A DNA stretch of 64,000 nt, from positions 57,583 to 121,582 of the forward strand of contig CAJUDX010000001.1 of the NCBI GenBank assembly GCA_910584785.1. The letters run 5' to 3'. This document shows, piece after piece, positions 11,960 to 40,077 of the stretch. The number at the start of each line of letters is the position of its first letter. Position 1 is the stretch's first letter. Below the pieces are notes generated by a model, which had not been told where the DNA came from, did not search any database, and was given only the letters and a program-made list of their open reading frames with translations. The DNA is from an uncultured Lachnospiraceae bacterium (GTDB lineage Bacteria > Bacillota > Clostridia > Lachnospirales > Lachnospiraceae). The translations under genes and the position numbers were made by a program.

Positions 11960-12030
11960 AGCAGATGACGGGAATCGAACCCGCCTCCCCAGCTTGGGAA
12001 GCTGGTATTCTACCGATGAACTACATCTGC
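11960..12030 (-). tRNA. tRNA-Gly (anticodon CCC), 71 nt, CCA not encoded
   Basis: Hand-folded cloverleaf: acceptor GCAGATG/CATCTGC, D arm GTTC/GAAT, anticodon stem CCAGC/GCTGG with loop TTCCCAA, T arm GCGGG-TTCGATT-CCCGT, discriminator U. Confidence 0.9.
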
Positions 12031-12151: not shown

Positions 12152-12187
12152 TTTTTTCTTATTTTTCTATTTTTTCTTATTTTTCTA
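12152..12187. repeat. perfect 18-bp tandem duplication spanning the stop codon of the GT2-TPR gene
   Basis: TTTTTTCTTATTTTTCTA occurs twice (12152-12169 and 12170-12187). On the coding strand each copy reads ATAGAAAAATAAGAAAAA, that is IEK-stop. Confidence 0.85.
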
Positions 12188-13259
12188 TGTTTTCTTCCAT
12201 TACCTTAAGGTTATTTTGCAGGCGTTCATTGTCCGGTTCCAGTGCCAGGGCTTTTTTTGTTTCTTCCACTCCTTTTTCTCTCAGCCCCAGCCGGTCAAAG
12301 GCAATTGCCCGCAAATCGTGGGGCAGGCTTCCCCAGGCGGTGGCTTCGCTGATATAGGTTTTAGGCCGTTCAGTAAGCTTCAGGGCACATCCGGTAAAGT
12401 AGAGCACACCTTCCCATTCCTCCTCCTCATAAAGCATCCAGGCCAGATCCATATAGGCTTCCCTCAGATAAGGCGCCTGGGCAATTGCCTGCAAGTACCA
12501 GCTCTTTGCCTCCTCATACTCTCCTTTATTTCGATAGGCCTTTGCAAGATAGCGCATGGAAGCCGCCCGTTCATCCTTCCAGGTTGCCTGGGGCATTTGC
12601 AGATGGTACATTAAGGTGCGGATACAGTCGTCCCATTGCCCATGATACATATATTCCCGTCCCAGATAGTGGACATTGCGGTCATCGTGCGGTTCTTCTT
12701 TAACGGAGAGCTCCAGCAGGGGAAGGTACTGCCCGCGGGACTTTTCAGGATCGGGGTGGTGATCCAACTGAATCCCGTCCACCAAGATTACCGGTCCCTG
12801 TGTTTTTTCGCCCACCCACTGTAAAACCTCATGGACAGGGTGTACCCAGCGAAAACCGTGACGGGCATGGATTTTTTCCATCCAAAATACAATTCCTTCC
12901 CGGCCTTGCGGCGTAAAGCTCCAGGTATAGCGGTATTTGGCCTGGCTGCATCCTGTTTTCCAGGCGTTTTCCAGTTTTTTCCTCCATCCCGGATGGAATA
13001 CCTCGTCTAAATCTGTGCAGACGCAAATATCGGCATCCTCCGGCACCAGATCTAATGAACGGTTGCGGGCCACATCAAAACGCCAGGGCGATATCGTTTC
13101 CTCTGTCACATTTACACCTGCTTTTTGCAAAGCGCTGACGGTATTATCCGATGAACCGGTATCCAGCACCACGATTTCATCCGCCTCAGCCATAGATTCC
13201 ACCCAGCGTTTTACAAATTTTTCTTCATTTTTACAGATCCCATAAACGATAATTTTCAT
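12177..13259 (-). CDS. glycosyltransferase (GT2-like) with C-terminal TPR repeats
   Basis: The N-terminus reads KNEEKFVKRW...VVLDTGSSDNT...TDLDEV (GT-A/DxD-like). The C-terminal half has TPR-like helices (YLAKAYRNKGEYEEAKSWYLQAIAQAP...). It is a distant relative of the four paralogues at 33.4-39.1 kb. Confidence 0.75.
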   Translation of the reverse strand: MKIIVYGICKNEEKFVKRWVESMAEADEIVVLDTGSSDNTVSALQKAGVNVTEETISPWRFDVARNRSLDLVPEDADICVCTDLDEVFHPGWRKKLENAWKTGCSQAKYRYTWSFTPQGREGIVFWMEKIHARHGFRWVHPVHEVLQWVGEKTQGPVILVDGIQLDHHPDPEKSRGQYLPLLELSVKEEPHDDRNVHYLGREYMYHGQWDDCIRTLMYHLQMPQATWKDERAASMRYLAKAYRNKGEYEEAKSWYLQAIAQAPYLREAYMDLAWMLYEEEEWEGVLYFTGCALKLTERPKTYISEATAWGSLPHDLRAIAFDRLGLREKGVEETKKALALEPDNERLQNNLKVMEENIEK

Positions 13260-29546: not shown

Positions 29547-29726
29547 ATGTCTTGGCTGATGCAAAATCTTGGCACAATTATTCCGGCAGTATTGGTATTT
29601 GGCATTGCAGCCCTTGCTGCCAGAAGTGTGTGGAAAAATAAAAAAGCCGGGAAATGCTGCGGAAGCTGCGGCGGATGCAGCTGCGGGGATGGAAGCCATC
29701 GCTGCGGTCATGGTGCTGACTTGTAA
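29547..29726 (+). CDS. FeoB-associated Cys-rich membrane protein (59 aa; absent from the ORF track)
   Basis: Hand translation gives MSWLMQNLGTIIPAVLVFGIAALAARSVWKNKKAGKCCGSCGGCSCGDGSHRCGHGADL. That is one TM helix plus a Cys-rich tail. A GGAAGGAAGAG purine tract precedes the ATG. Confidence 0.75.
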   Translation: MSWLMQNLGTIIPAVLVFGIAALAARSVWKNKKAGKCCGSCGGCSCGDGSHRCGHGADL

Positions 29727-30001: not shown

Positions 30002-30898
30002 TTATAATTCTCTATCTGTTAAATTTAAGACAATCTCTTTTTCTGTATTAAGCAGGGCAGCTAAGAAGCAAAATGCGCTGTTTGACATAATCATCGCCTT
30101 GCACTTGCTCATCAGCTGCAAATCCCGGTAATTTTCCCCCTGCACATTTCCCTCAACAAAGGTTACGCTTTCGAATGTGTCAAAATGCATCTCTTTTGCA
30201 TGTTCTTTGCACCAGGGGATATCATCAGAAAAGACAAAAAGGTTCCAGCTGCGTCCATACTGTACAAAGAAGGCGTCAATACATAATTGATAAAAGTCTG
30301 CAGAGAAATCCATGTTTAATTGGATATAATCCCCCCTGCGGATATGGATGGAAATAGAAGGCAGCGTAGTGATTTTTTTAATATATTGCAGGTTTCTTTC
30401 GTCAGTAATTTCAGGAAATTGAAATTCTTTCAGAAAAACTTCCTGATAAGTTTCAAACCAGTTTTTATTTATCCAATAACCATGATAGTATATATTTTCG
30501 GGGGTGGAGATATCCAAAATTTCAGGAAAGTATTGACGGCAGGGAATATCATGCCGTTTTCCGTTGAATGGGTTAAAGTGCTGGCTGTCTTTACCAACTT
30601 CGGAAATCATTTCAACAGGAATGCCGTTTTCCATAAGAATCTGCGGAACACTTTTATGCTCCTGCTGCCGGGTATACAGGATGAAATCCCACACAGTTTT
30701 GTCAAAACATTCGCTTAACATATGAGGGCGAATCCCAAATACTTTTTCCAGTTCATATCCGTTATGTACGGTATTTAATGCAAAATAACTGTCATCCATA
30801 TACATTACATCACCGGGATGAGATAATGCATAGTATCTGGCAAAGATATACTGAAAAGCCTGATTAGCCAGGCCGCCGTTTAAAAATTGAATCTTCAT
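30002..30898 (-). CDS. glycosyltransferase family 11 (alpha-1,2-fucosyltransferase-like)
   Basis: The N-terminal GGLANQAFQYIFA and the HIRRGDY motif are characteristic of GT11. Confidence 0.85.
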   Translation of the reverse strand: MKIQFLNGGLANQAFQYIFARYYALSHPGDVMYMDDSYFALNTVHNGYELEKVFGIRPHMLSECFDKTVWDFILYTRQQEHKSVPQILMENGIPVEMISEVGKDSQHFNPFNGKRHDIPCRQYFPEILDISTPENIYYHGYWINKNWFETYQEVFLKEFQFPEITDERNLQYIKKITTLPSISIHIRRGDYIQLNMDFSADFYQLCIDAFFVQYGRSWNLFVFSDDIPWCKEHAKEMHFDTFESVTFVEGNVQGENYRDLQLMSKCKAMIMSNSAFCFLAALLNTEKEIVLNLTDREL

Positions 30899-31025
30899 GC
30901 GTGTGCTCCTTACCTGAAAATATTGCCTGAGGGTCTGCTGAAATCGTTTATTTAACTATCATACAATAAGAAGAAAATGATTGCAACAGGTTAAACGATA
31001 CATTCAAAAAAAGTTGAAATTTAAA

Positions 31026-31053
31026 CTTATTCTTCTTTTTTTTTTGCCGATAT
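31026..31053 (+). promoter_or_regulatory. sigma-28 (SigD/FliA)-type promoter of flagellin 1: CTTATT-N14-GCCGATAT
   Basis: The -10 GCCGATAT is at 31046-31053. The spacer contains a T10 homopolymer (31036-31045). Confidence 0.6.
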
Positions 31054-31153
31054 TTAAAGCAGGAGCAATAGAGATGTGGAAGAATGCGTGGCAGTTTGGG
31101 CTTTGCAAGGAGGCAGGAAGCCGGCTGCGGCGATTGGAAGGTGGTTGATAGAT

Positions 31154-32029
31154 TTGATTATACAACATAACATGGGCAGTTTGAATGCCACTAGAAATAA
31201 GGGTATATCCGAAGGAAAGATGAGAAAATCATTAGAGAAGCTTTCTTCTGGCTACCGTATCAACCGGGCTGGGGATGATGCCGCAGGATTGGCGATTTCC
31301 GAGCTGATGAGAAGCCAGATTCGCGGACTGAATCAGGCGATGCGAAATGTGGATGATGGTATCAGCATGACGAATACTGGTGAAGGTGCTTTGAGTGAAG
31401 TTCATTCCATGCTGGAGAGGATGAAAACCTTGGCGGTTCAGTCAGCAAACAGCACCTATACGACAGTGCCCAGAGATAATATCGATTTAGAGCGTCAGCA
31501 GCTATTAGAAGAAATTGACCGAATTGGTGTGTCCACCGATTTTGATGATATTCCTCTGTTTGGTTCCTCTGAAAACGCAGCAGAGAAAATAGAAGAGCTT
31601 GTACCTCCGCTGGAAGCTGATCAGATTAAGGGAGATAATATTACCCTTCAGATTGGTCATGATGCAGGTGAAGTTTTAAATGTACCTCGTTACTATATGG
31701 ATAGCAAATCATTATTGCTTGAAAAGTGGACGGATTTTTCTACTGAGCATAAGGCAAATGAATCGATTGCTATTATCGATGCTGCGATAGAGGCTGTGGC
31801 TGATATTCGTGCGGAGTTTGGTGCAGCATATAATCATTTGGAACATACCCATAATAATTTAAGTGTTACTTCTGAAAATATGACTTCAGCAGAGAGCCGT
31901 ATTCGGGATACAGATATGGCAGATGAATTTACTACGTTTACAAAAGATAATATTGTTTATCAGGCGGCGAACTCTATGGTAGCGCAGGCTAATGCTGTTC
32001 CGCAGTCGATATTAAGCCTGCTTCAATAG
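31154..32029 (+). CDS. fliC: flagellin (divergent paralogue, probable TTG start)
   Basis: From the TTG at 31154 the product (M)IIQHNMGSLNATRN...LEKLSSGYRINRAGDDAAGLAISE aligns residue for residue with the N-terminus of flagellin 2. The C-terminus SENMTSAESRIRDTDMADE...VPQSILSLLQ is conserved. The ORF-track extension from 31076 has no flagellin homology. Confidence 0.85.
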   Translation: MIIQHNMGSLNATRNKGISEGKMRKSLEKLSSGYRINRAGDDAAGLAISELMRSQIRGLNQAMRNVDDGISMTNTGEGALSEVHSMLERMKTLAVQSANSTYTTVPRDNIDLERQQLLEEIDRIGVSTDFDDIPLFGSSENAAEKIEELVPPLEADQIKGDNITLQIGHDAGEVLNVPRYYMDSKSLLLEKWTDFSTEHKANESIAIIDAAIEAVADIRAEFGAAYNHLEHTHNNLSVTSENMTSAESRIRDTDMADEFTTFTKDNIVYQAANSMVAQANAVPQSILSLLQ

Positions 32030-32084
32030 GGATAAAGTATAATATAAACAAGAAATAAAAAGCATAAAAAAGTTAAAAAAAGTT

Positions 32085-32112
32085 CTTAAGTTTTAGAAAG
32101 TAATGACGATAA
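32085..32112 (+). promoter_or_regulatory. sigma-28-type promoter of flagellin 2: CTTAAG-N14-GACGATAA
   Basis: The hexamer and spacing match the cheA-operon promoter. It would give a leader of about 120 nt. Confidence 0.55.
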
Positions 32113-32238
32113 TTAAAAATGTAAGCTGAAAAGTAAATATAAAAGCTTTACAGACTTTTTCGAGGTAGGGCCCTCTTCGAAAAAGAGCCGGGGACAGGGA
32201 AGTTCCTGGGAAAGTATCATAAACAGGAGGAAGATTTT

Positions 32239-33171
32239 ATGATTATTCAACATAATATAGCGGCAATTAACTCATACAGAAACTTAGGTATCAACCAGAG
32301 TGGTTTGAACAAGAACTTAGAGAAGCTGTCTTCCGGTTACAGAATCAACCGTGCAGGCGATGACGCTGCAGGCTTGGCTATTTCCGAGAGCATGAGATCT
32401 CAGATCAATGGTTTAAATCAGGCTACCAAGAACGCACAGGATGCTGTTGGCTTAATCCAGACAGTTGAAGGTGCTTTAACCGAAACTCACTCCATGTTAC
32501 AGCGTCTTACCACACTGGCTAGCCAGTCTGCAAATGGTACGTACAATACAGTAGCACGTGGAAACCTGCAGCTGGAAGTTGATCAGCTGTTACAGGAAAT
32601 CGACCGTATCGCTAACTACACCGACTTCAACGGCATTAAGCCAATTCAGGCTGACGTTGCTGGTACGAAGATGACCTTCCAGATTGGACCAAGTGCTAAG
32701 GAAACGATTGTAGTTAACAAGCAGGCTATGACTGCTTCTGCATTAGGTTTAAGAGCAGGAAACCTTACCAGTAATGCTATTAGCACTAAGTATGAATATG
32801 ATAAGACTGGTGCTGATGATCAGAAAGTAAATATCAAGTGGGCTGTTTCTACTTCTGGCAACACTGCGAAGGTTAATGTTTCTACACAGACCGGTGGTAA
32901 CAAGGCTATCGACAGAATTAACGATGCTATCAACTTAGTATCCCAGTACCGTGCAGGTCTCGGTGCTGCTCAGAACCGTCTGGAGCATACCATCAACAAC
33001 CTGAAGGTAACTTCTGAGAACATCACCGCTGCTGAGAGCCGTATCCGTGATACCGATATGGCAGATGAGATCACTGCATTCACGAAGAATAATATTCTTC
33101 TGCAGGCATCTCAGTCCATGCTGGCTCAGTCCAACTCTGTACCGCAGAGCATCCTGAGCTTGATTGGATAA
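32239..33171 (+). CDS. fliC: flagellin
   Basis: MIIQHNIAAINSYRNLG...LSSGYRINRAGDDAAGLAISE is a canonical N-terminus, and the D0/D1 C-terminus is canonical too. An AGGAGGAAG Shine-Dalgarno precedes the ATG. Confidence 0.93.
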   Translation: MIIQHNIAAINSYRNLGINQSGLNKNLEKLSSGYRINRAGDDAAGLAISESMRSQINGLNQATKNAQDAVGLIQTVEGALTETHSMLQRLTTLASQSANGTYNTVARGNLQLEVDQLLQEIDRIANYTDFNGIKPIQADVAGTKMTFQIGPSAKETIVVNKQAMTASALGLRAGNLTSNAISTKYEYDKTGADDQKVNIKWAVSTSGNTAKVNVSTQTGGNKAIDRINDAINLVSQYRAGLGAAQNRLEHTINNLKVTSENITAAESRIRDTDMADEITAFTKNNILLQASQSMLAQSNSVPQSILSLIG

Positions 33172-33184
33172 TTAAGCAGTTTCT

Positions 33185-33204
33185 GGCCCGGCAGTCGCCG
33201 GGCC
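33185..33204 (+). terminator. GC-rich hairpin after flagellin 2
   Basis: GGCCCGGC-AGTC-GCCGGGCC is a perfect 8-bp stem. No clean U-run follows; a second ATGATA/TATCAT hairpin comes next. Confidence 0.5.
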
Positions 33205-33444
33205 ATATGATAAAAGGGCCTATCATAAAAAGTCATTTTCTGATCCGAAAGGTAAGGAAATGGCTTTTTATTATTATCGTTTGCTGCTGTTATCATTCTT
33301 AAAAGCGGAAAATACAAATGGAAAATGAAAATAATTCTTGTCTAAAACAATTCTTGCTTTATTATCCAGAAAACGTTAAAATAAGAAAAGGAAAAACGAT
33401 CAAAAACAATTGTATCAGGAATATGGCTTGTAAGGAGTCTTGTA

Positions 33445-34926
33445 ATGCAGAGCGAAAGATTAGCAGAACATGATGTGCAATATCAGAAAAATCTATCCCA
33501 GCGAAAAGTATCCGATAAAGCAAAAAGAACCCCAGGGAGGAAGAAACAGTTGAAAACGAAATCATTAAAAATTTCTCAATGTATGATTGTAAAAAATGAA
33601 GAAAATAATATCCGGCAGGCCTTATCCTGGGGTAAGGAAATCATGTGGGAACAGATTGTTGTAGATACCGGCTCTGCCGATCGCACGGTGCAGATAGCAG
33701 AAGAATTAGGGGCAAAGGTGTGTCATTATGTATGGACAGATGACTTTGCCGCAGCGAAAAATTTTGCCATTGGTCAGGCAAAAGGGGATTGGATTGCCCT
33801 GTTGGATGCTGACGAATATATGACGCCGGAGGATGCCAGGAAAATTCAGGAGGTTTTGATTGAACTGGAAGAAAGGGAGTTTGACGGTCTTTCGACGAAT
33901 CTGCAGAACTTAAATGATGAGGGGGAAGCATTTTCCTTTGGCACGCAGGTTCGTTTCTTCCGCAATGACCCGGATATCCGTTATCGCAGGAGGATACATG
34001 AGCAGTTGGAAACCGTATCGGGAAGAAAGCTGCGCATCGGTGATGCCACGCAGGAGCTTTCGATTTTCCATACAGGATATCAAAAGAAGGCAATGGAAGG
34101 AAAGGAAAAGAAAGGAAGAAACCGGAGACTGATTCTGGCTGAATTGGATGAAAACCCGAATGATTATGAGATGATGGGTTATATGGGGGATGATTGTCTG
34201 GCGGATGGAGAAAGCGAGGAGGCAACGACCTGGTACCGCCGTTCGATTCAGCACATGCCTTCTATGCTGGAGCCTGACGACCAGCGCAGTGCTATGACAT
34301 TTACAGAGTTTTTACATTTGCTGACGGAAAAAGAAGCTTTGCTTGGCGATGGATTACGGATGGATGAAATTCTTGGGACTTACCAGAGGGCGATTCAGTT
34401 ACTGCCGGAGGAGGCAGATTTTGACTATATATTAGGACGTTTTTTTGCAATGAAAAATGATATGACCAGGGCGATAAGGCATTTGGAAATGGCGTTAAGC
34501 AAACTGGATCGTTATGGCTGTTATAATAAAGCAATGTTATTATCGGGAAATGTATTTGATGCTTATGAAATATTAGTACGATGTTATTATGAGACAGGAG
34601 AGAAGCAAAAGTGTATTTCCTATGCAGTAAATTATCTGAACTATAACCGTTATGGGGTGGAGGTATTGTTTTGGCTATTAAAAGCATTGCTGCCGGATGA
34701 GGGAGGAAAGGAAAAGGGAACAATGGAAAACGGGGCAGCAGGAGAAAATGGAGAGAGAGAGAAAAGAGAAGTTCTTGAGGCCCTTTCCCGTCTTTATGAT
34801 GTTACAGCATTAAAGGATAAGGTGATTTTGGTGAAAACGGCGGAGAAGGCGGTGGGAAAAGACTTTTCGGAATTTTTGCTTAATCAGCTTTTTTCTCAGG
34901 AAGAGAGAAGGAGACTGGGCTATTGA
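33445..34926 (+). CDS. GT2 glycosyltransferase with TPR-like C-terminal region (paralogue 1)
   Basis: ISQCMIVKNEENNI, DTGSADRT and LLDADEY motifs are present. The ATG at 33445 has an AAGGAG Shine-Dalgarno. By homology with the other paralogues the TTG at 33550 (after GGGAGG) is an alternative start. Confidence 0.8.
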   Translation: MQSERLAEHDVQYQKNLSQRKVSDKAKRTPGRKKQLKTKSLKISQCMIVKNEENNIRQALSWGKEIMWEQIVVDTGSADRTVQIAEELGAKVCHYVWTDDFAAAKNFAIGQAKGDWIALLDADEYMTPEDARKIQEVLIELEEREFDGLSTNLQNLNDEGEAFSFGTQVRFFRNDPDIRYRRRIHEQLETVSGRKLRIGDATQELSIFHTGYQKKAMEGKEKKGRNRRLILAELDENPNDYEMMGYMGDDCLADGESEEATTWYRRSIQHMPSMLEPDDQRSAMTFTEFLHLLTEKEALLGDGLRMDEILGTYQRAIQLLPEEADFDYILGRFFAMKNDMTRAIRHLEMALSKLDRYGCYNKAMLLSGNVFDAYEILVRCYYETGEKQKCISYAVNYLNYNRYGVEVLFWLLKALLPDEGGKEKGTMENGAAGENGEREKREVLEALSRLYDVTALKDKVILVKTAEKAVGKDFSEFLLNQLFSQEERRRLGY

Positions 34927-34956
34927 TCATGATAAGAGGCAGGGGAGGAGTTTAGT

Positions 34957-36309
34957 TTGAAGCAAACAATACAGGGGAAAATTTCCCAGTGCATGATTGT
35001 AAAGAATGAAGAAAAAAATATTGAGCAGGCCTTAAGCTGGGGAAAGGGAGTAGTGGCGGAGCAGATTGTTGTTGACACGGGATCTGCAGATCGGACAGTG
35101 GAGATTGCCCAAAGGCTGGGTGCAAAGGTTTTTCATTTTCCCTGGATAAACGATTTTGCTGCGGCGAAGAATTTTGCTATCGAAAAGGCGCAGTATGAAT
35201 GGATTGCCTTTTTGGATGCCGATGAGTATTTTTCAGCGGAGGATGCAAAAAAATTAGCTGATGTATTGCATCATCTTTCGGCCCAGCCTGTAGATTCTGT
35301 AATGACTGCCTGGATTCATTTATATGATGATAAATCCATTATGCAGGTGGATTCCCAGACTAGAATTTTCCGCAATTGCCCGCAGATACGCTATCATGGT
35401 CGGATTCATGAAGTTTTGCGGCGTTCGGATGGAAAAGATATGGAAAATCAGGATGAGACAGCGAATCTTGCGATTTTTCATACAGGTTACGGTGAGGAAG
35501 CAGAAGAAAAGAAAAAGGCAAGTAAGAGAAATCTTCTGTTAATTCAGGCCGAGTTAGAGGATAATCCGAATAATTATCAAATGCAGGCCTATTTAGGAAA
35601 TGAATATTTAGCACTTGCAGAATATGAACTTGCGGAAAGCGCGTATCGAAAAGCTATTTCCCTGATGCCGGAAGAGGTGCTGGGAGAGTATAGCGTAATT
35701 ACATCGGGTGTTTTTTCGCGTCTTATCAATATATTGACCGATCGTCCAGGTAATCATGAGAACAAAATCGTGGAACTTTACCGACAGGCTTCCTTTGGCT
35801 GGCCTAAGGAAGGAGATTATGATTATTTGCTCGGAGAGTATTATGCGGGGCGGGAGAACTTCTGGGAAGGTGAAAGATATTTTAAACAGGCTTTAGAAAA
35901 GCTGGATAAGTATGGACATGCGCAGTATTCGTCTAAGCTTTCAGCAAGAATTATGCATACTTATGAACTATTGATTATGTGCTGCCTGAATAATGGAAAT
36001 TACAGTGATTGTGTAAAATATGCAGCAGCGATACTAAAAGAAAATCCCTATTTAATGACGATCGCCATATTGTTTATTTCTGCGTTTCACCGGGATATGG
36101 CAAAGCGGGGAAGAGAAAAGGATGGGGCAGCAGAGGTGGCGGCATTGTTAGGAAATGCATTTTATAATTTCCAATCGCTTAAAGATCGAATTTTTGTTCT
36201 TCGTGCGGCAATGGATGCAAACTATGCAGAATTAGTGGAAGTTATCCGCGGATTATTTAGCCCTGAGGAGATAGAACAGGTGGATCGCGGGCTGGGAAAA
36301 AGGAAGTAA
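34957..36309 (+). CDS. GT2 glycosyltransferase with TPR-like C-terminal region (paralogue 2)
   Basis: The TTG start follows GGAGGAG. ISQCMIVKNEEKNI, DTGSADRT and FLDADEY motifs are present. Confidence 0.8.
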   Translation: MKQTIQGKISQCMIVKNEEKNIEQALSWGKGVVAEQIVVDTGSADRTVEIAQRLGAKVFHFPWINDFAAAKNFAIEKAQYEWIAFLDADEYFSAEDAKKLADVLHHLSAQPVDSVMTAWIHLYDDKSIMQVDSQTRIFRNCPQIRYHGRIHEVLRRSDGKDMENQDETANLAIFHTGYGEEAEEKKKASKRNLLLIQAELEDNPNNYQMQAYLGNEYLALAEYELAESAYRKAISLMPEEVLGEYSVITSGVFSRLINILTDRPGNHENKIVELYRQASFGWPKEGDYDYLLGEYYAGRENFWEGERYFKQALEKLDKYGHAQYSSKLSARIMHTYELLIMCCLNNGNYSDCVKYAAAILKENPYLMTIAILFISAFHRDMAKRGREKDGAAEVAALLGNAFYNFQSLKDRIFVLRAAMDANYAELVEVIRGLFSPEEIEQVDRGLGKRK

Positions 36310-36370
36310 AACATAAAGAAAAACATAACAGAGTCGATGGAACATGACAGATAAAGAGGAGGATGCAATA

Positions 36371-37732
36371 TTGAATAAAATAGGCCGGGCAAAGATTTCC
36401 CAGTGCATGATTGTGAAAAATGAAGAAAAGAATATTGTACAAGCGCTTTCCTGGGGAAAGGGGATTGTGGCAGAGCAGATTGTTGTGGATACGGGATCGA
36501 CCGACAGAACCGTGGAAATCGCCCAGGAAATGGGAGCAAAGGTATATTCTTTTCCCTGGATCAATGATTTTTCAGCGGCGAAGAATTTTGCTATTGGTAA
36601 GGCTCGATATAGCTGGATTGCTTTTTTGGATGCCGATGAATATTTTTCTGGGGAAGATGCGAAAAAACTCCTTTCTTTGCTGGAAAAGCTTCATCCTCAT
36701 GCATGTGACGGTGTGGAAACCAGGTTAATTAATTTAGGTGATGAAGGAAAAGTGATTTCTATGGATACGCAGATTCGTATTTTTCGCAACCAACCGGATT
36801 TGCGCTATGTCAGGAAAATTCATGAGCATTTGGTAGCAGCAGACGGACGCAATTTGCGGATATGGAGTGCTGTGGGAGATTTATCGATTTATCATACCGG
36901 ATATGCGCAGAATGAGATGCAGAATAAGAAAAGCAGCCAGAGAAATCTAAGCCTTATCTTGGAGGAGCTTAAGGAAAATACAGAGAATTACGAAATGTAT
37001 GGTTATCTGGGCAATGAATATGAGGCTCTTGAAGAATGGGATAAGGCAAAAGAAGCCTATCAAAAAGCAATTGCTTTGATGCCGGAGAGTTTATATGGTA
37101 AGTACGATATGGAAACTTCTGGATTTGTTTTTCGTTTGCTGGAACTGATGACCGTTTTTCCCGGAAATGAAAAATCAGATATTTTAGCTTTATATCAAAG
37201 GGCAGTGAAGGGGTGGCCGGAAGAGGGAAATTATGATTATCTTCTGGGTAAGTATTATGCCGGGTGCCATTTATTTGGCGAAGCAGAGCATTATCTTGAA
37301 CAGGCTCTGGATAAGTTGGAAAAGCGTAAAAATCCACAGTGCTGTACCTTAATATCAGCCAATATAATGAAATTTTATGAACTTTTGGCAATGTGCTGTT
37401 TAAACTGCGGAAACAGAAATGGCTGTGTCAAGTATACGTCAGCATTATTGAAGGAAAATCCATATTTAATGACGACAATTATGTTATTTATCTCTGCATT
37501 CCATCAGGATATGGCGGCGATGGGAAGGGAAACGGAAGGGGCTGGGGAAGTAGCAGCGCTTTTGGGCAGGTCATTTTATGATTTCCAGTCGTTAAAAGAC
37601 AGAATGTTTGTCCTTCGTGCGGCGATGGATGTCGGATACCCTGCATTGGTGGAGGTTATCCGCGCTTTGTTTTCACCAGAGGAGTTAGAGCAGGTAGACA
37701 GGGCATTGAATCAAAATAAGGGGGGAGCATAA
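36371..37732 (+). CDS. GT2 glycosyltransferase with TPR-like C-terminal region (paralogue 3)
   Basis: The TTG at 36371 follows AGAGGAGGA and gives an N-terminus collinear with the other paralogues. The ORF is also open from the ATG at 36344. DTGSTDRT and FLDADEY motifs are present. Confidence 0.78.
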   Translation: MNKIGRAKISQCMIVKNEEKNIVQALSWGKGIVAEQIVVDTGSTDRTVEIAQEMGAKVYSFPWINDFSAAKNFAIGKARYSWIAFLDADEYFSGEDAKKLLSLLEKLHPHACDGVETRLINLGDEGKVISMDTQIRIFRNQPDLRYVRKIHEHLVAADGRNLRIWSAVGDLSIYHTGYAQNEMQNKKSSQRNLSLILEELKENTENYEMYGYLGNEYEALEEWDKAKEAYQKAIALMPESLYGKYDMETSGFVFRLLELMTVFPGNEKSDILALYQRAVKGWPEEGNYDYLLGKYYAGCHLFGEAEHYLEQALDKLEKRKNPQCCTLISANIMKFYELLAMCCLNCGNRNGCVKYTSALLKENPYLMTTIMLFISAFHQDMAAMGRETEGAGEVAALLGRSFYDFQSLKDRMFVLRAAMDVGYPALVEVIRALFSPEELEQVDRALNQNKGGA

Positions 37733-37733
37733 G

Positions 37734-39080
37734 ATGGCAAGAAAAGATCAACCAAAGATTTCCCAATGCATGATTGTAAAAAATGAAGAAAAGAATATAG
37801 AAAGGGCTCTTCTTTGGGGGAAGGGGATTGTGGCAGAGCAGATTGTTGTGGATACGGGTTCGACGGATCGGACAGTGGAGCTGGCAGAAAAGATGGGAGC
37901 GAAGGTGTATTCTTTTGCATGGATAGACGACTTTTCCGCGGCAAAAAACTTTGCTATCAGCAAGGCAACGGGAGATTGGATAGCTTTTTTGGATGCCGAT
38001 GAGTATTTCTCCGATGAAGATGCGAAGAAGATTCCGGCATTATTGGCAAAGCTTTCGGGAGAGTGTGAATCCGTGCTGACAGCGATGCTTCAGCTGGACG
38101 ACGCCGGGTTAGTTAAGGCTGTGGATACACATATGCGCCTGTTTCGTCGGCATCCTGATTTGCGTTATAAGAACAGGATTCATGAGTTCCTTTCTTTTCG
38201 GGGAGAAAGGCCGCCGCGGTTTTGGGATGCTACGCAGGAATTGTCTATTATTCATACAGGCTATACAGAAACGGAGAATAAGCGGAAACGGGATGAAGGC
38301 AGGAATCTCCGTTTGATTCAGAGAGAGTTAATGGAAGATCCCGATAATTATGAAATGCTGGTTTATCTTGGAAATGAATATGAGACGCTGGAGAAATGGG
38401 ATCTGGCAGAGGATGCCTATCGCAGGGCAATTGCCCTTATGCCAGGAAGTGTAAAAGGTGATTATGATGTTTTGACTTCAGGCTGCGCCTTTCGTTTTTT
38501 GGAGCTTTTAGCTGTCGTTCCGGGAAAAAACGAGAGCGATATGATGGAGATTTATGAATGGGCGGTTGAAAATTGGCCGGAAGAAGGGGATTTTTCCTAT
38601 ATTGTGGGAAATTATTATGCGGTAAAGGGAGATTATGTGGCAGGAGAAAGGTATCTGCGCAAAGCATTAGAGACGATGGAGAGGTATGGAACCTCCCGCC
38701 GTTCTTCCTTGACGTCGGCAAAGATTATGGAAACCTATGAGCTGCTTGCGGTGTGCTGTTTAAATAATGGAGACCGGGAGGAATGTGTAAGATACACAAC
38801 TGCATTATTAAAGGAAAACCGTTATCTGATGACAACGGCAATGCTGTTTATCGTTGCTTTTCGCCAGGATTTGGCAAAGACAGGTCAGGAAAAGAGCGGC
38901 GCCTCTAAAGTAGCTGCTCTCTTAGGCAAGTCATTTTATGATTTTACTTCTTTGAAGGACCGGATTTTCGTTCTCCGTGCCGCTATGGATGCCCGATATC
39001 CTGAACTTATCGAGGTTATCCGCGGTTTATTTACCCCAGAGGAGTTAGCGCAGGTTGACCGGGCACTGAATAAGACCTAA
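37734..39080 (+). CDS. GT2 glycosyltransferase with TPR-like C-terminal region (paralogue 4)
   Basis: The ATG lies 1 nt after the stop of paralogue 3. DTGSTDRT and FLDADEY motifs are present. Confidence 0.8.
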   Translation: MARKDQPKISQCMIVKNEEKNIERALLWGKGIVAEQIVVDTGSTDRTVELAEKMGAKVYSFAWIDDFSAAKNFAISKATGDWIAFLDADEYFSDEDAKKIPALLAKLSGECESVLTAMLQLDDAGLVKAVDTHMRLFRRHPDLRYKNRIHEFLSFRGERPPRFWDATQELSIIHTGYTETENKRKRDEGRNLRLIQRELMEDPDNYEMLVYLGNEYETLEKWDLAEDAYRRAIALMPGSVKGDYDVLTSGCAFRFLELLAVVPGKNESDMMEIYEWAVENWPEEGDFSYIVGNYYAVKGDYVAGERYLRKALETMERYGTSRRSSLTSAKIMETYELLAVCCLNNGDREECVRYTTALLKENRYLMTTAMLFIVAFRQDLAKTGQEKSGASKVAALLGKSFYDFTSLKDRIFVLRAAMDARYPELIEVIRGLFTPEELAQVDRALNKT

Positions 39081-39949
39081 TCACCCTCATTTACAGACAC
39101 TGCCCATAAAGGTCCCCCGCTGTCGTAAGCCTGTTTTAATTCATCCATCAGCTGCTGCAAATCCCATTCTTTTGTGCTGTTTTCATAATTTGCAGGGTCG
39201 GCAATGTAAACATTTCCATTATCTTTGATTTGGGTAATGATAATAAAATGTCCATTATTGGTCAAGCGACCCTTTCCCATCAGCGCTACCAGGATATGAC
39301 CGGACTGCAGCAGCTTTGCAGCATGTTCGGCGGTTCGTTCGGTAACGCTTTCCACCTTAAGGCCGTAAGCCGATAAACTGTTGGGAATTAAAGAGTGGTA
39401 AGAACCTCCATTGCGGGCAAAGCCTCCGTTTGCCGCTCCCCAGTCCGCCATTTCCACCGGAGTAACGCTGGTCGTGGTAAAGCTGTTTATGATCATGGCG
39501 ACACAGGTAGGCCCGCATCCGTACCGGCTCATCGGGTCGGTGCCGCCGTAGAGGTAGGATTTCCAGCGAAGGTCACCCTGATTATAATAAAGCATAGCGC
39601 CAAGTGCTGTATCCAGAAAACAGGAATAAATCGAATCCTCCTGCTCTGGAAAAACTGGTTCAGCATTAAAATCCGAAATATCTCCCATGTCTGCGGTCAG
39701 GGTAATGCGGGGAATGGTTTCTTCCTCTGCTGGTACTTCTTCCTTTGCTGCAAGCCGTTCTTCGCGTTCTTTCTTCCATTCCTGAATATCATGGACAATG
39801 GCTGAGGCACTGTCCTTTACATCTTTCCAGGTAAATGGCCGGAAATAAGAAAAAAGACTGACAATAATTGCCATCGCCATGACTGTAATTCCGCCAATCA
39901 GCAGATTTTCTGCCATACTGTTTTTTTGGCGTACAGTTTTTTTTACCAT
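39077..39949 (-). CDS. membrane-anchored papain-like cysteine peptidase (C39-like domain)
   Basis: An N-terminal TM (LLIGGITVMAMAIIVSLF) is followed by a coiled/charged linker. The candidate catalytic Cys is in YGCGPTCVAMII and the His in NGHFIIIT. The ATG at 39949 is used here; a TTG at 39979 is also possible. Confidence 0.6.
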   Translation of the reverse strand: MVKKTVRQKNSMAENLLIGGITVMAMAIIVSLFSYFRPFTWKDVKDSASAIVHDIQEWKKEREERLAAKEEVPAEEETIPRITLTADMGDISDFNAEPVFPEQEDSIYSCFLDTALGAMLYYNQGDLRWKSYLYGGTDPMSRYGCGPTCVAMIINSFTTTSVTPVEMADWGAANGGFARNGGSYHSLIPNSLSAYGLKVESVTERTAEHAAKLLQSGHILVALMGKGRLTNNGHFIIITQIKDNGNVYIADPANYENSTKEWDLQQLMDELKQAYDSGGPLWAVSVNEGD

Positions 39950-40077
39950 GGTAAGAGTCAATCCTTTCCTGAATCTCAATTAATTTAAACAAAATTCTGA
40001 CAAACCGCCAGCATGCTGACACATTTACTTTCAGGTAAATGATTTGGCGAAATGTAAACGTGTCAGAACACTATCGT

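Follow-up and report, generated by a model that had tools for sequence, protein, structure and literature searches.

The locus described here raises the question of what four tandem glycosyltransferase genes, found behind a pair of flagellin genes, do, and whether the four copies differ in function. It is located in a 64,000-nucleotide stretch (the window) of the genome of an uncultured Lachnospiraceae bacterium (GenBank assembly GCA_910584785.1, contig CAJUDX010000001.1, positions 57,583 to 121,582 of the forward strand). The flagellins, Fla1 and Fla2, are encoded at 31154-32029 (+; 291 amino acids (aa), TTG start) and 32239-33171 (+; 310 aa). The glycosyltransferases (GTs), each composed of a family GT2 domain and a helical domain of the tetratricopeptide repeat (TPR) type, are encoded at 33445-34926 (GT_1, 493 aa), 34957-36309 (GT_2, 450 aa, TTG start), 36371-37732 (GT_3, 453 aa, TTG start) and 37734-39080 (GT_4, 448 aa), all on the forward strand. 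A gene of family GT11 at 30002-30898 (-), which encodes a predicted alpha-1,2-fucosyltransferase, is transcribed divergently from Fla1. The cluster very probably glycosylates flagellin, and the best overall explanation of the locus is likely a cytoplasmic flagellin O-glycosylation island of a Lachnospiraceae bacterium.

The coordinates and the head-to-tail order of the genes had been given in a preliminary description of this DNA and are all reproduced by the list of open reading frames (ORFs). The gaps between GT_1 and GT_2, GT_2 and GT_3, and GT_3 and GT_4 are 30, 61 and 1 nt, respectively, i.e., GT_4 starts 1 nt past the GT_3 stop codon. The assigned start sites are backed by ribosome-binding sites. 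The TTG start of Fla1 sits inside a longer ORF, and the Fla1 orthologue in a related genome (locus L003, position L003:1599) also starts at TTG. For GT_3 there is an alternative ATG at 36344; its orthologues likewise start at TTG. As the preliminary description had noted, no nucleotide-sugar biosynthesis gene is found in the 64-kb window among the Pfam-annotated ORFs of ≥120 aa and those smaller ORFs of the locus that were inspected.

Domain architecture and fold of the array enzymes

The proteins GT_1-GT_4 match the Glycos_transf_2 family (PF00535) with 63.9-67.4 bits vs a cut-off of 23.3 (E 2e-17 to 2e-18), and the motifs ISQCMIVKNEE, DTGSxDRT and LDADEY are invariant across their alignment. 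The residues expected to be catalytic (D40, D87-x-D89, H150, E151 and H174) are invariant in 38 homologues. The TPR_2 family is recognised in GT_3 and GT_4 (34.2 and 38.7 bits vs a cut-off of 27), while GT_1 and GT_2 score under the cut-off; according to the alignment, the helical domain is complete in all four copies. A confident model of GT_4 obtained with AlphaFold2 (AF2) on the basis of 38 homologues (predicted local distance difference test score 91.7) displays a GT-A fold at aa 9-175 and an all-helical part at aa 179-446. Pfam, alignment and model agree with the earlier observation of intact GT2 motifs combined with a TPR-like region, and the profile and structure searches identify the N-terminal domains as glycosyltransferases (PF00535, GT-A fold). 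The assignments rest on Pfam for all four enzymes, complemented by positional orthologues and the ratio of nonsynonymous to synonymous substitution rates (dN/dS) for GT_1, by orthologues and dN/dS for GT_2, by a fusion, a tree and dN/dS for GT_3, and by the GmaR match, the AF2 model and Foldseek for GT_4.

In a search of GT_4 against the sequences of the Protein Data Bank (PDB), the best match is the GT domain of GmaR (22ao; E 1.3e-29, aa 6-201), with IHE and HxGY conserved between the two, followed by SunS (E 1e-22) and ThuS (E 2e-17). When the GT_4 model is compared to PDB structures using Foldseek, ThuS and SunS are found on top (E ~1e-17) and the next GT-A enzymes at ~1e-8. No NCBIfam family reaches its cut-off for the array enzymes, the GT11 protein or the C39-like peptidase encoded downstream; the best family for the array enzymes is the SunS model TIGR04195, which scores 66.6-99.2 bits vs an equivalog cut-off of 350. 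Overall, GT_1-GT_4 are predicted, from sequence and model, to be soluble GT2 enzymes, inverting and metal-dependent, that belong with those whose direct acceptor is a polypeptide.

The mutual identity of GT_2, GT_3 and GT_4 is 58-61%, that of GT_1 with these three 43-45%, and that of a distant relative elsewhere in the window (GT_5, see below) ~26%. Along the proteins, identity among the paralogues is ~80% at aa 1-100, ~40% at aa 100-200, 38-52% at aa 250-350 and 64-76% in the last 100 residues. The sequences vary most in the second, acceptor-side half of GT-A and among the TPR helices mid-protein. The conserved last ~100 aa of GT_2-GT_4 (64-76%) and their divergence mid-protein (38-52%) had been correctly described earlier. 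The different C-terminus that had been attributed to GT_1 is instead a diverged version of the same domain, in which LKDK...LFSQEE aligns with LKDR...LFSPEE of GT_2-GT_4. GT_1 also bears a K/R-rich, 43-aa N-terminal extension.

Among the known systems, GmaR consists of a ~180-residue N-terminal GT domain followed by a TPR domain and puts GlcNAc on Listeria flagellin; the protein is 637 aa long including linker and anti-repressor domains (PMC9638930). The array enzymes resemble this beta-O-GlcNAc transferase of Listeria monocytogenes in the GT2/GT-A motifs, the TPR-type helices that follow and the link to flagellin. However, GmaR is a single gene that adds a single GlcNAc and includes the anti-repressor part, whereas the window harbors four paralogues and GT11, and no MogR-type partner as in the GmaR system is seen in the window. 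SunS and ThuS (PDB 7msp, 7msn, 7msk) share the full-length fold, i.e., GT-A plus a helical TPR-like domain, and glycosylate a polypeptide directly, but the precursor, immunity and exporter genes of those systems are absent here, and their acceptor is a bacteriocin Cys while the acceptor expected here would be flagellin Ser/Thr.

In Clostridioides (C.) difficile, both the type A (FgtA/CD0240) and the type B loci have GT genes directly downstream of the flagellin gene, and in type B the enzymes GT1, GT2 and GT3, encoded after fliC, build the flagellin glycan stepwise (PMC5207246). There, flagellin is glycosylated on the protein and in the cytoplasm, as is proposed here, the likeness being one of gene layout and mode of glycosylation. 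The C. difficile flagellin glycosylation loci contain biosynthesis or modification genes (PMC5207246; 10.64898/2026.02.12.704994), whereas the locus in the window encodes transferases only. In Caulobacter FlmG and in Maf, the work is divided between a TPR module that docks flagellin and a catalytic module for sugar transfer; the FlmG TPR domain binds flagellins (PMC7591256), and in GT2-TPR/TPR-GT relatives more generally the TPR module binds flagellin and glycosylation is cytoplasmic (PMC9638930, PMC7591256). FlmG is composed of TPR and GT-B domains, the Maf proteins are nonulosonic-acid transferases, and both need nearby dedicated CMP-sugar pathways; in contrast, the window enzymes are GT2/GT-A proteins without a sugar pathway in their vicinity. 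A flagellar island may hold several Maf paralogues, which have been proposed to differ in their specificity for site or sugar (PMC13317340).

Organisation of the locus in related genomes

One genome per species was scanned for GT2-TPR genes; the locus set corresponds to the 80 most similar hits, and the best 77 loci were kept, all from Lachnospiraceae or close relatives and many from metagenome-assembled genomes (MAGs). Relatives were annotated by BLAST against the window proteins, and counts over 78 loci include the window. A flagellin gene is found in 65 of these 78 loci, in 54 of them ≤1.6 kb from the GT array, and the linkage holds across genera and rearranged orientations. This linkage, GmaR as the best PDB sequence, and ThuS and SunS as the best folds support the earlier view of the locus as a flagellin glycosylation island.

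The longest same-strand tandem run comprises one gene in 38 loci, two in 27, three in 10 and four in three, with one to five GT2-TPR ORFs per locus in total. Four copies are therefore the top of a continuous range across Lachnospiraceae and not unique; the fourfold expansion is at the upper end of the range, and to call it unusual, as had been done earlier, overstates it. The gene order in L003 is that of the window, i.e., GT11, two flagellins, four GTs, the C39-like gene and cheB. Locus L090 (GT_4 81% identical) has four GTs, and L088 (90% identical) at least three before the contig ends.

In a neighbour-joining tree of 171 GT2-TPR ORFs, GT_1 is placed in a clade of 26 members that are found first after the flagellins, while GT_2-GT_4 belong to an 11-member clade that otherwise contains only genes of L001, L002 and L003. 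GT_2, GT_3 and GT_4 each have their own orthologue in L001 and L002; orthologues of GT_2, for example, are L001_3374, L002_7446 and the corresponding genes of L088 and L090. Locus L003 has one gene that is sister to GT_2 and GT_3 and has duplicated its GT_1-type gene instead, and therefore the window and L003 reached four copies via different duplications. Over the wider clade, 24 loci combine both types (GT_1 and GT_2-4); one locus has only the GT_1 type (L025, straight after the flagellin) and three have only the GT_2-4 type, among them L009, whose first GT begins at the contig end. From these sequences, the recurring unit is one GT_1-type gene followed by one to three GT_2-4-type genes. A separate clade of ~360-aa GT2-TPR proteins is encoded upstream of the flagellins in many relatives (e.g., L007:3225-4304, L015:2445-3527, L016:4124-5203, L022:5316-6413 and L030:2646-3734), at the place where the window and L003 have GT11.

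Two kinds of gene fusion are found in the relatives. In L001:4750-7215 and L002:8822-11329 the orthologues of GT_3 and GT_4 form a single ORF of 821-835 aa, in which a GT_3 orthologue cut short at residue 348 (72% identical) is joined through a linker rich in Q, E and P to a complete GT_4 orthologue (66%). These loci, from two sister-species MAGs of different studies, are nearer to the window than the rest of the 77 loci from reference genomes (CheB identity 86-87%). In the second kind, which is absent from the window, the last gene of the array encodes a GT2-TPR protein of 860-940 aa with a C-terminal GT-B domain (PF13524, Glyco_trans_1_2); it is found in at least four relatives (L005:11350-14169, L007:11363-13948, L010:11338-13923 and L030:7401-10082), and the last genes of L011 and L020 are of the same length. 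Fusion is a classic sign that the partners act together on one substrate. Considering both the fusions and the co-occurrence of the two types, we lean towards a picture in which the paralogues cooperate in non-redundant steps.

The GT11 protein matches PF01531 with 76.2 bits (cut-off 23.9, E 3e-21) and contains HIRRGDY in its translation. It shares the family match and the HxRRGDY motif with the alpha-1,2-fucosyltransferases of CAZy family GT11; unlike these, the Lachnospiraceae subfamily sits in flagellar loci, with donor and acceptor both predicted. Characterised GT11 members act on O-antigen, capsule or host-like glycans. The preliminary description called the gene divergent, which is true of its orientation but not of its sequence, since hundreds of homologues with 61-82% identity are common in Lachnospiraceae, some named alpha-1,2-fucosyltransferase by NCBI. 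Among the 77 loci retrieved with the GT2-TPR query, GT11 is found only in L003. In addition, seven contexts of GT11 homologues (64-77% identity) were sampled. A flagellin gene lies ≤8 kb from the homologue in five of them (L078, L080, L082, L085 and L087), and in L082 the order is flagellin, two GT2 genes, GT11 and a GDP-mannose-dehydratase-type gene (GDP_Man_Dehyd). In L084 the homologue is found among fliD, fliS, fliW, csrA and other transferases, and in L086 it adjoins a GT2-TPR gene and no flagellin gene is within range. With six of the seven contexts flagellar, and L003 in addition, this GT11 subfamily is a component of flagellar glycosylation islands and, as had been supposed earlier, plausibly is so here. 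Because GT11 enzymes act on glycans, the presence of this gene implies at least one elongation step, if the enzyme is active here. The islands of L084, L085 and L086 are much larger and also encode LicD, methyltransferases, nucleotidyltransferases and enzymes of the GT-D and GT-B types. Their content suggests that flagellar glycans vary widely within Lachnospiraceae. The small extra ORFs inside the L003 array and a 397-aa gene beside GT11 in L080 have no Pfam hits.

Both flagellins contain Flagellin_N and Flagellin_C (E 1e-25 to 1e-40); their best NCBIfam model is flagellin Hag, with a score under the cut-off. The two proteins are 50% identical and differ in their central regions, which in Fla2 is composed of 22% Ser+Thr and in Fla1 is short and acidic with 9.5% Ser+Thr. 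From this composition Fla2 is the likelier main glycan acceptor, and Fla1 is perhaps not the main filament protein but a minor or specialised flagellin. A sigma-28 (FliA/SigD)-like -10 box is found upstream of each gene, GCCGATAT at 31046-31053 (+) for Fla1 and GACGATAA at 32105-32112 (+) for Fla2. Of 87 flagellin genes, 52 have such a box ≤250 nt upstream, vs 5 of 162 GT genes and 4% of background windows; these are -10-like boxes only, and the full SigD consensus TAAA-N13-17-CCGATA has no matches. In the 5' leader of Fla2 (32140-32238) an inverted repeat, ctttttcgag...cttcgaaaaag, is found together with several GGA motifs, one of which lies in the Shine-Dalgarno region. The leader presumably resembles CsrA/FliW-controlled flagellin leaders, and fliW and csrA are present in L084.

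Fla2 and GT_1 are separated by 273 nt, and right behind the Fla2 stop codon a GC-rich hairpin, GGCCCGGC-agtc-GCCGGGCC, can be read at 33185-33204 (+). It has no T-run and is possibly a terminator or a stabiliser; a terminator scan missed it, and terminator-like sites were not above shuffled background. Given the hairpin, the 273-nt gap and the few sigma-28-like boxes at GT genes, co-transcription of the array with the flagellin genes is not supported.

The proposed pathway and its alternatives

In the scheme that we propose, Fla1 and Fla2 would be expressed from sigma-28-type promoters and bound, prior to flagellar export, by the helical TPR domains of the GT2-TPR enzymes. The inverting, DxD-dependent GT-A domains would then move sugars from ordinary nucleotide sugars, drawn from housekeeping pools, to Ser/Thr of the exposed central region. 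GT_1, the conserved first gene, would initiate the glycan, while GT_2, GT_3 and GT_4, whose differences lie in the second, acceptor-side half of GT-A and in the central helices, would extend or branch it on the flagellin-bound intermediate. GT11 would add a terminal, fucose-type cap, its GDP-sugar presumably being made elsewhere in the genome. Here, the acceptor, the sugars and the order of the steps are what we infer from the established domain identities, fold, conservation, flagellin linkage, fusions and age of the duplicates; for the sequential glycan-building steps the chances appear about even.

A number of observations weigh against this scheme. Searches of the available literature revealed no biochemical evidence for this organism or a close relative and no direct study of flagellin glycans in Lachnospiraceae, Roseburia or Butyrivibrio. 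No GDP-fucose pathway is encoded in the 64-kb window, where Pfam annotation of the ORFs reveals no gmd, fcl or fkp. The GT genes mostly lack sigma-28 boxes (5/162), and co-regulation with flagellin is thereby unsupported. In L002 no flagellin gene is found in the 6 kb upstream of the array (L002:1-6064), which could be due to a rearrangement or a MAG assembly problem. Furthermore, the tree has no bootstrap support, and the GTs of 26 single-GT loci are as far from GT_1 as from GT_2-4, so that neither the ancestral type nor the initiator is assignable by phylogeny. Finally, GmaR, SunS and ThuS attach a single sugar straight to a protein side chain, and a full TPR domain is kept by all four paralogues; both facts would fit equally well if each enzyme initiated its own glycan.

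Such parallel initiation is possible, if rather improbable. Here, each GT2-TPR enzyme would modify flagellin directly and differ from the others in donor, Ser/Thr site or preference for Fla1 or Fla2, which would result in several short glycans. The side chains of a protein or peptide are the direct acceptor for all characterised relatives (GmaR, PMC9638930; SunS and ThuS), the helical domain is complete in each copy, variability peaks on the acceptor side of GT-A and in the middle TPR helices, and the two flagellins offer very different central regions. A precedent is also found in the multiple Maf paralogues with distinct site specificity (PMC13317340). However, the GT_3-GT_4 and GT2-TPR/GT-B fusions are more usual among enzymes that act one after the other on a single substrate, and the GT_1 and GT_2-4 types nearly always co-occur. 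GT11, moreover, requires a glycan acceptor, i.e., some chain extension would take place if it is active here.

A further alternative, in which the paralogues are no separate enzymes but form a flagellin-docked, hetero-oligomeric assembly line via the C-terminal helical domain of GT_2-GT_4, is considered because GT_3 of the sister species has lost its C-terminal domain and is fused to GT_4. The portion lost in the fusion corresponds to the C-terminal 100 residues common to GT_2-GT_4 (64-76%), which suggests, as far as we infer from the sequences, that the C-terminal ~100 residues of GT_3 may mediate association between paralogues. The assembly line as such is unlikely.

That the enzymes act on a target other than flagellin, e.g., a glycocin-like peptide, another surface protein or a cell-wall polymer, with flagellin adjacency being conserved synteny, is very improbable. 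The closest folds are those of glycocin S-glycosyltransferases and the best NCBIfam model is SunS, yet this model scores only 67-99 bits vs its cut-off of 350, and the sequence match to GmaR is better than that to SunS. A C39-like peptidase gene is found directly downstream of the array, but it is encoded on the opposite strand and stays by cheB whatever the number of GT genes, and no precursor peptide or ABC exporter gene is found at 27-42 kb. The L002 array without adjacent flagellin genes and the GT genes without sigma-28 boxes would also fit another target; they are set against the 65 of 78 loci with a flagellin gene, across genera and rearranged orientations.

A GmaR-like moonlighting function, where at least one paralogue is mainly a regulator of flagellar expression (an anti-repressor) and not an enzyme, is more improbable still. 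GmaR combines flagellin GlcNAc-transferase and MogR anti-repressor functions (PMC9638930), and its GT domain is the closest solved relative. However, the array proteins comprise 448-493 aa vs 637 aa of GmaR, their PDB match is to the GmaR GT chain only, with no match to the TPR-linker-antirepressor chain (GmaR 141-637) at E < 0.01, and all four copies have invariant catalytic residues that are under purifying selection.

The age of the copies bears on whether they are redundant. Synonymous differences between paralogues are saturated in all pairs (proportion of synonymous differences, pS, 0.72-0.79) and in almost every 40-codon window, the conserved ends included. Conservation of the N- and C-termini is therefore due to purifying selection and not to recent duplication or homogenisation; recent duplication or broad conversion of whole genes, one of the origins suggested in the preliminary description, is ruled out by this divergence. 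Compared with the L088 and L090 orthologues, dN/dS is 0.07-0.12 over all four copies (GT_1 0.11 vs L090, GT_2 0.10-0.12, GT_3 0.07-0.10), and therefore all four are maintained as functional genes, in line with the earlier impression that no copy is decayed. The corresponding values for the adjacent chemotaxis genes and the C39-like gene are 0.02-0.09. Positive selection was not detected, dN exceeding dS in no window of the orthologue comparison; the paralogue comparisons are saturated and hence uninformative in this respect. For the earlier idea that the array could drive antigenic diversity, the sequences offer differences in gene content from species to species, but no sign of positive selection. 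From these sequence comparisons the four paralogues are ancient, individually conserved and not redundant.

The 38-nt identity that had been reported between GT_3 at 36458-36495 (+) and GT_4 at 37821-37858, which encodes KGIVAEQIVVDTG, is exact, and this length was reached in none of 2000 codon-column shuffles. Inside the block, GT_4 has more in common with GT_3 than with its 90%-identical orthologue in L088. The block falls in the most nucleotide-conserved stretch of the family, and in the same 120-nt segment identical runs of 20-32 nt are found between non-orthologous family genes of different species, which weakens the block as strong evidence of conversion. Of the recent events that had been suggested, a conversion tract of at most ~40 nt is thus possibly left. 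The suggestion that the copies are recent, largely redundant and kept alike by gene conversion is barely credible: the 38-nt block and its closeness to GT_3 are outweighed by the saturated pS in all pairs and nearly all windows, by the 20-32-nt identities across species and by the own orthologues that every copy has in L001, L002, L088 and L090. Relative to L088, the closest contig, dS is 0.42-0.64 for the GT genes and 0.17-0.32 for the adjacent C39, cheB, cheR and cheW genes, i.e., it differs ~2-fold, which hints at a history of the GT genes separate from that of their flanks, e.g., through recombination.

Neighbouring genes and implications for Lachnospiraceae flagella

The locus is flanked by feoB upstream and by the C39-like peptidase gene, cheB, cheR, cheW, cheA and three methyl-accepting chemotaxis protein genes downstream. 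The Peptidase_C39_2 protein (300 aa) is encoded at 39077-39979 (-), converging on GT_4 with a 4-nt overlap; it has no ABC-transporter domain, and its gene stays beside cheB in many relatives regardless of the number of GT genes. Behind feoB, a 59-aa ORF at 29547-29726 (+) encodes a FeoB-associated Cys-rich membrane protein (PF12669) that is unrelated to the glycosylation locus. A search against Rfam gave no match in the locus, the only match being a tRNA at 11960-12030.

The distant gene GT_5 (12177-13259, -; 360 aa), which had been recognised earlier as a fifth GT2-TPR gene, contains GT2 and TPR_2 domains according to Pfam (PF00535 38.5 bits, cut-off 23.3). It adjoins the tRNA gene (11960-12030, -), a MerR regulator gene and a gene for a choline-binding-repeat protein. 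Its nearest clade-mates (L054, L060, L062, L064 and L075) sit a few kb upstream of flagellin genes, and GT_5, 18 kb off, has perhaps been displaced from the flagellin system, its membership being uncertain.

In L002, which of L001 and L002 is the only one with enough upstream sequence, the GT array, the C39-like gene and cheB are kept. The 6 kb upstream of that array contain a pyruvate formate-lyase (PFL)-like glycyl-radical enzyme, another ORF and a 296-aa ORF that has no match in Pfam. An ORF beside the array that was suspected to be transposase-like has no Pfam hit.

The kind of system described here, i.e., a flagellin glycosylation island with an enzyme of the GmaR/FgtA type, is already known and is common in the clade. 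No characterised system is known to combine a two-type GT2-TPR set of which the second type is amplified by lineage, gene fusions, a flagellin-linked GT11 and the absence of sugar-pathway genes. With this locus, the known type is found in a group that is medically relevant and unstudied, which is unsurprising in principle. Most motile members of the clade carry one to four tandem flagellin-type GTs after the flagellins (≤5 per locus), and these arrays are often joined by further transferases such as GT11, their content varying by species via repeated duplication and fusion. In practical terms, four related protein glycosyltransferases and a natural two-enzyme fusion constitute a handy system for studies of acceptor choice in GT2-TPR enzymes.

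Lachnospiraceae flagellins are among the most abundant bacterial antigens met by the gut immune system, and they are usually studied as unglycosylated recombinant proteins. If the enzymes described here coat the filament, the native antigens would differ from the recombinant ones, and species-specific glycans could affect motility, recognition by phages and antibodies, and innate sensing. If the assembly-line alternative were true, lineage-specific duplication and fusion would result in a flagellar glycan “barcode” of each species, which could alter antibody and TLR5 recognition.

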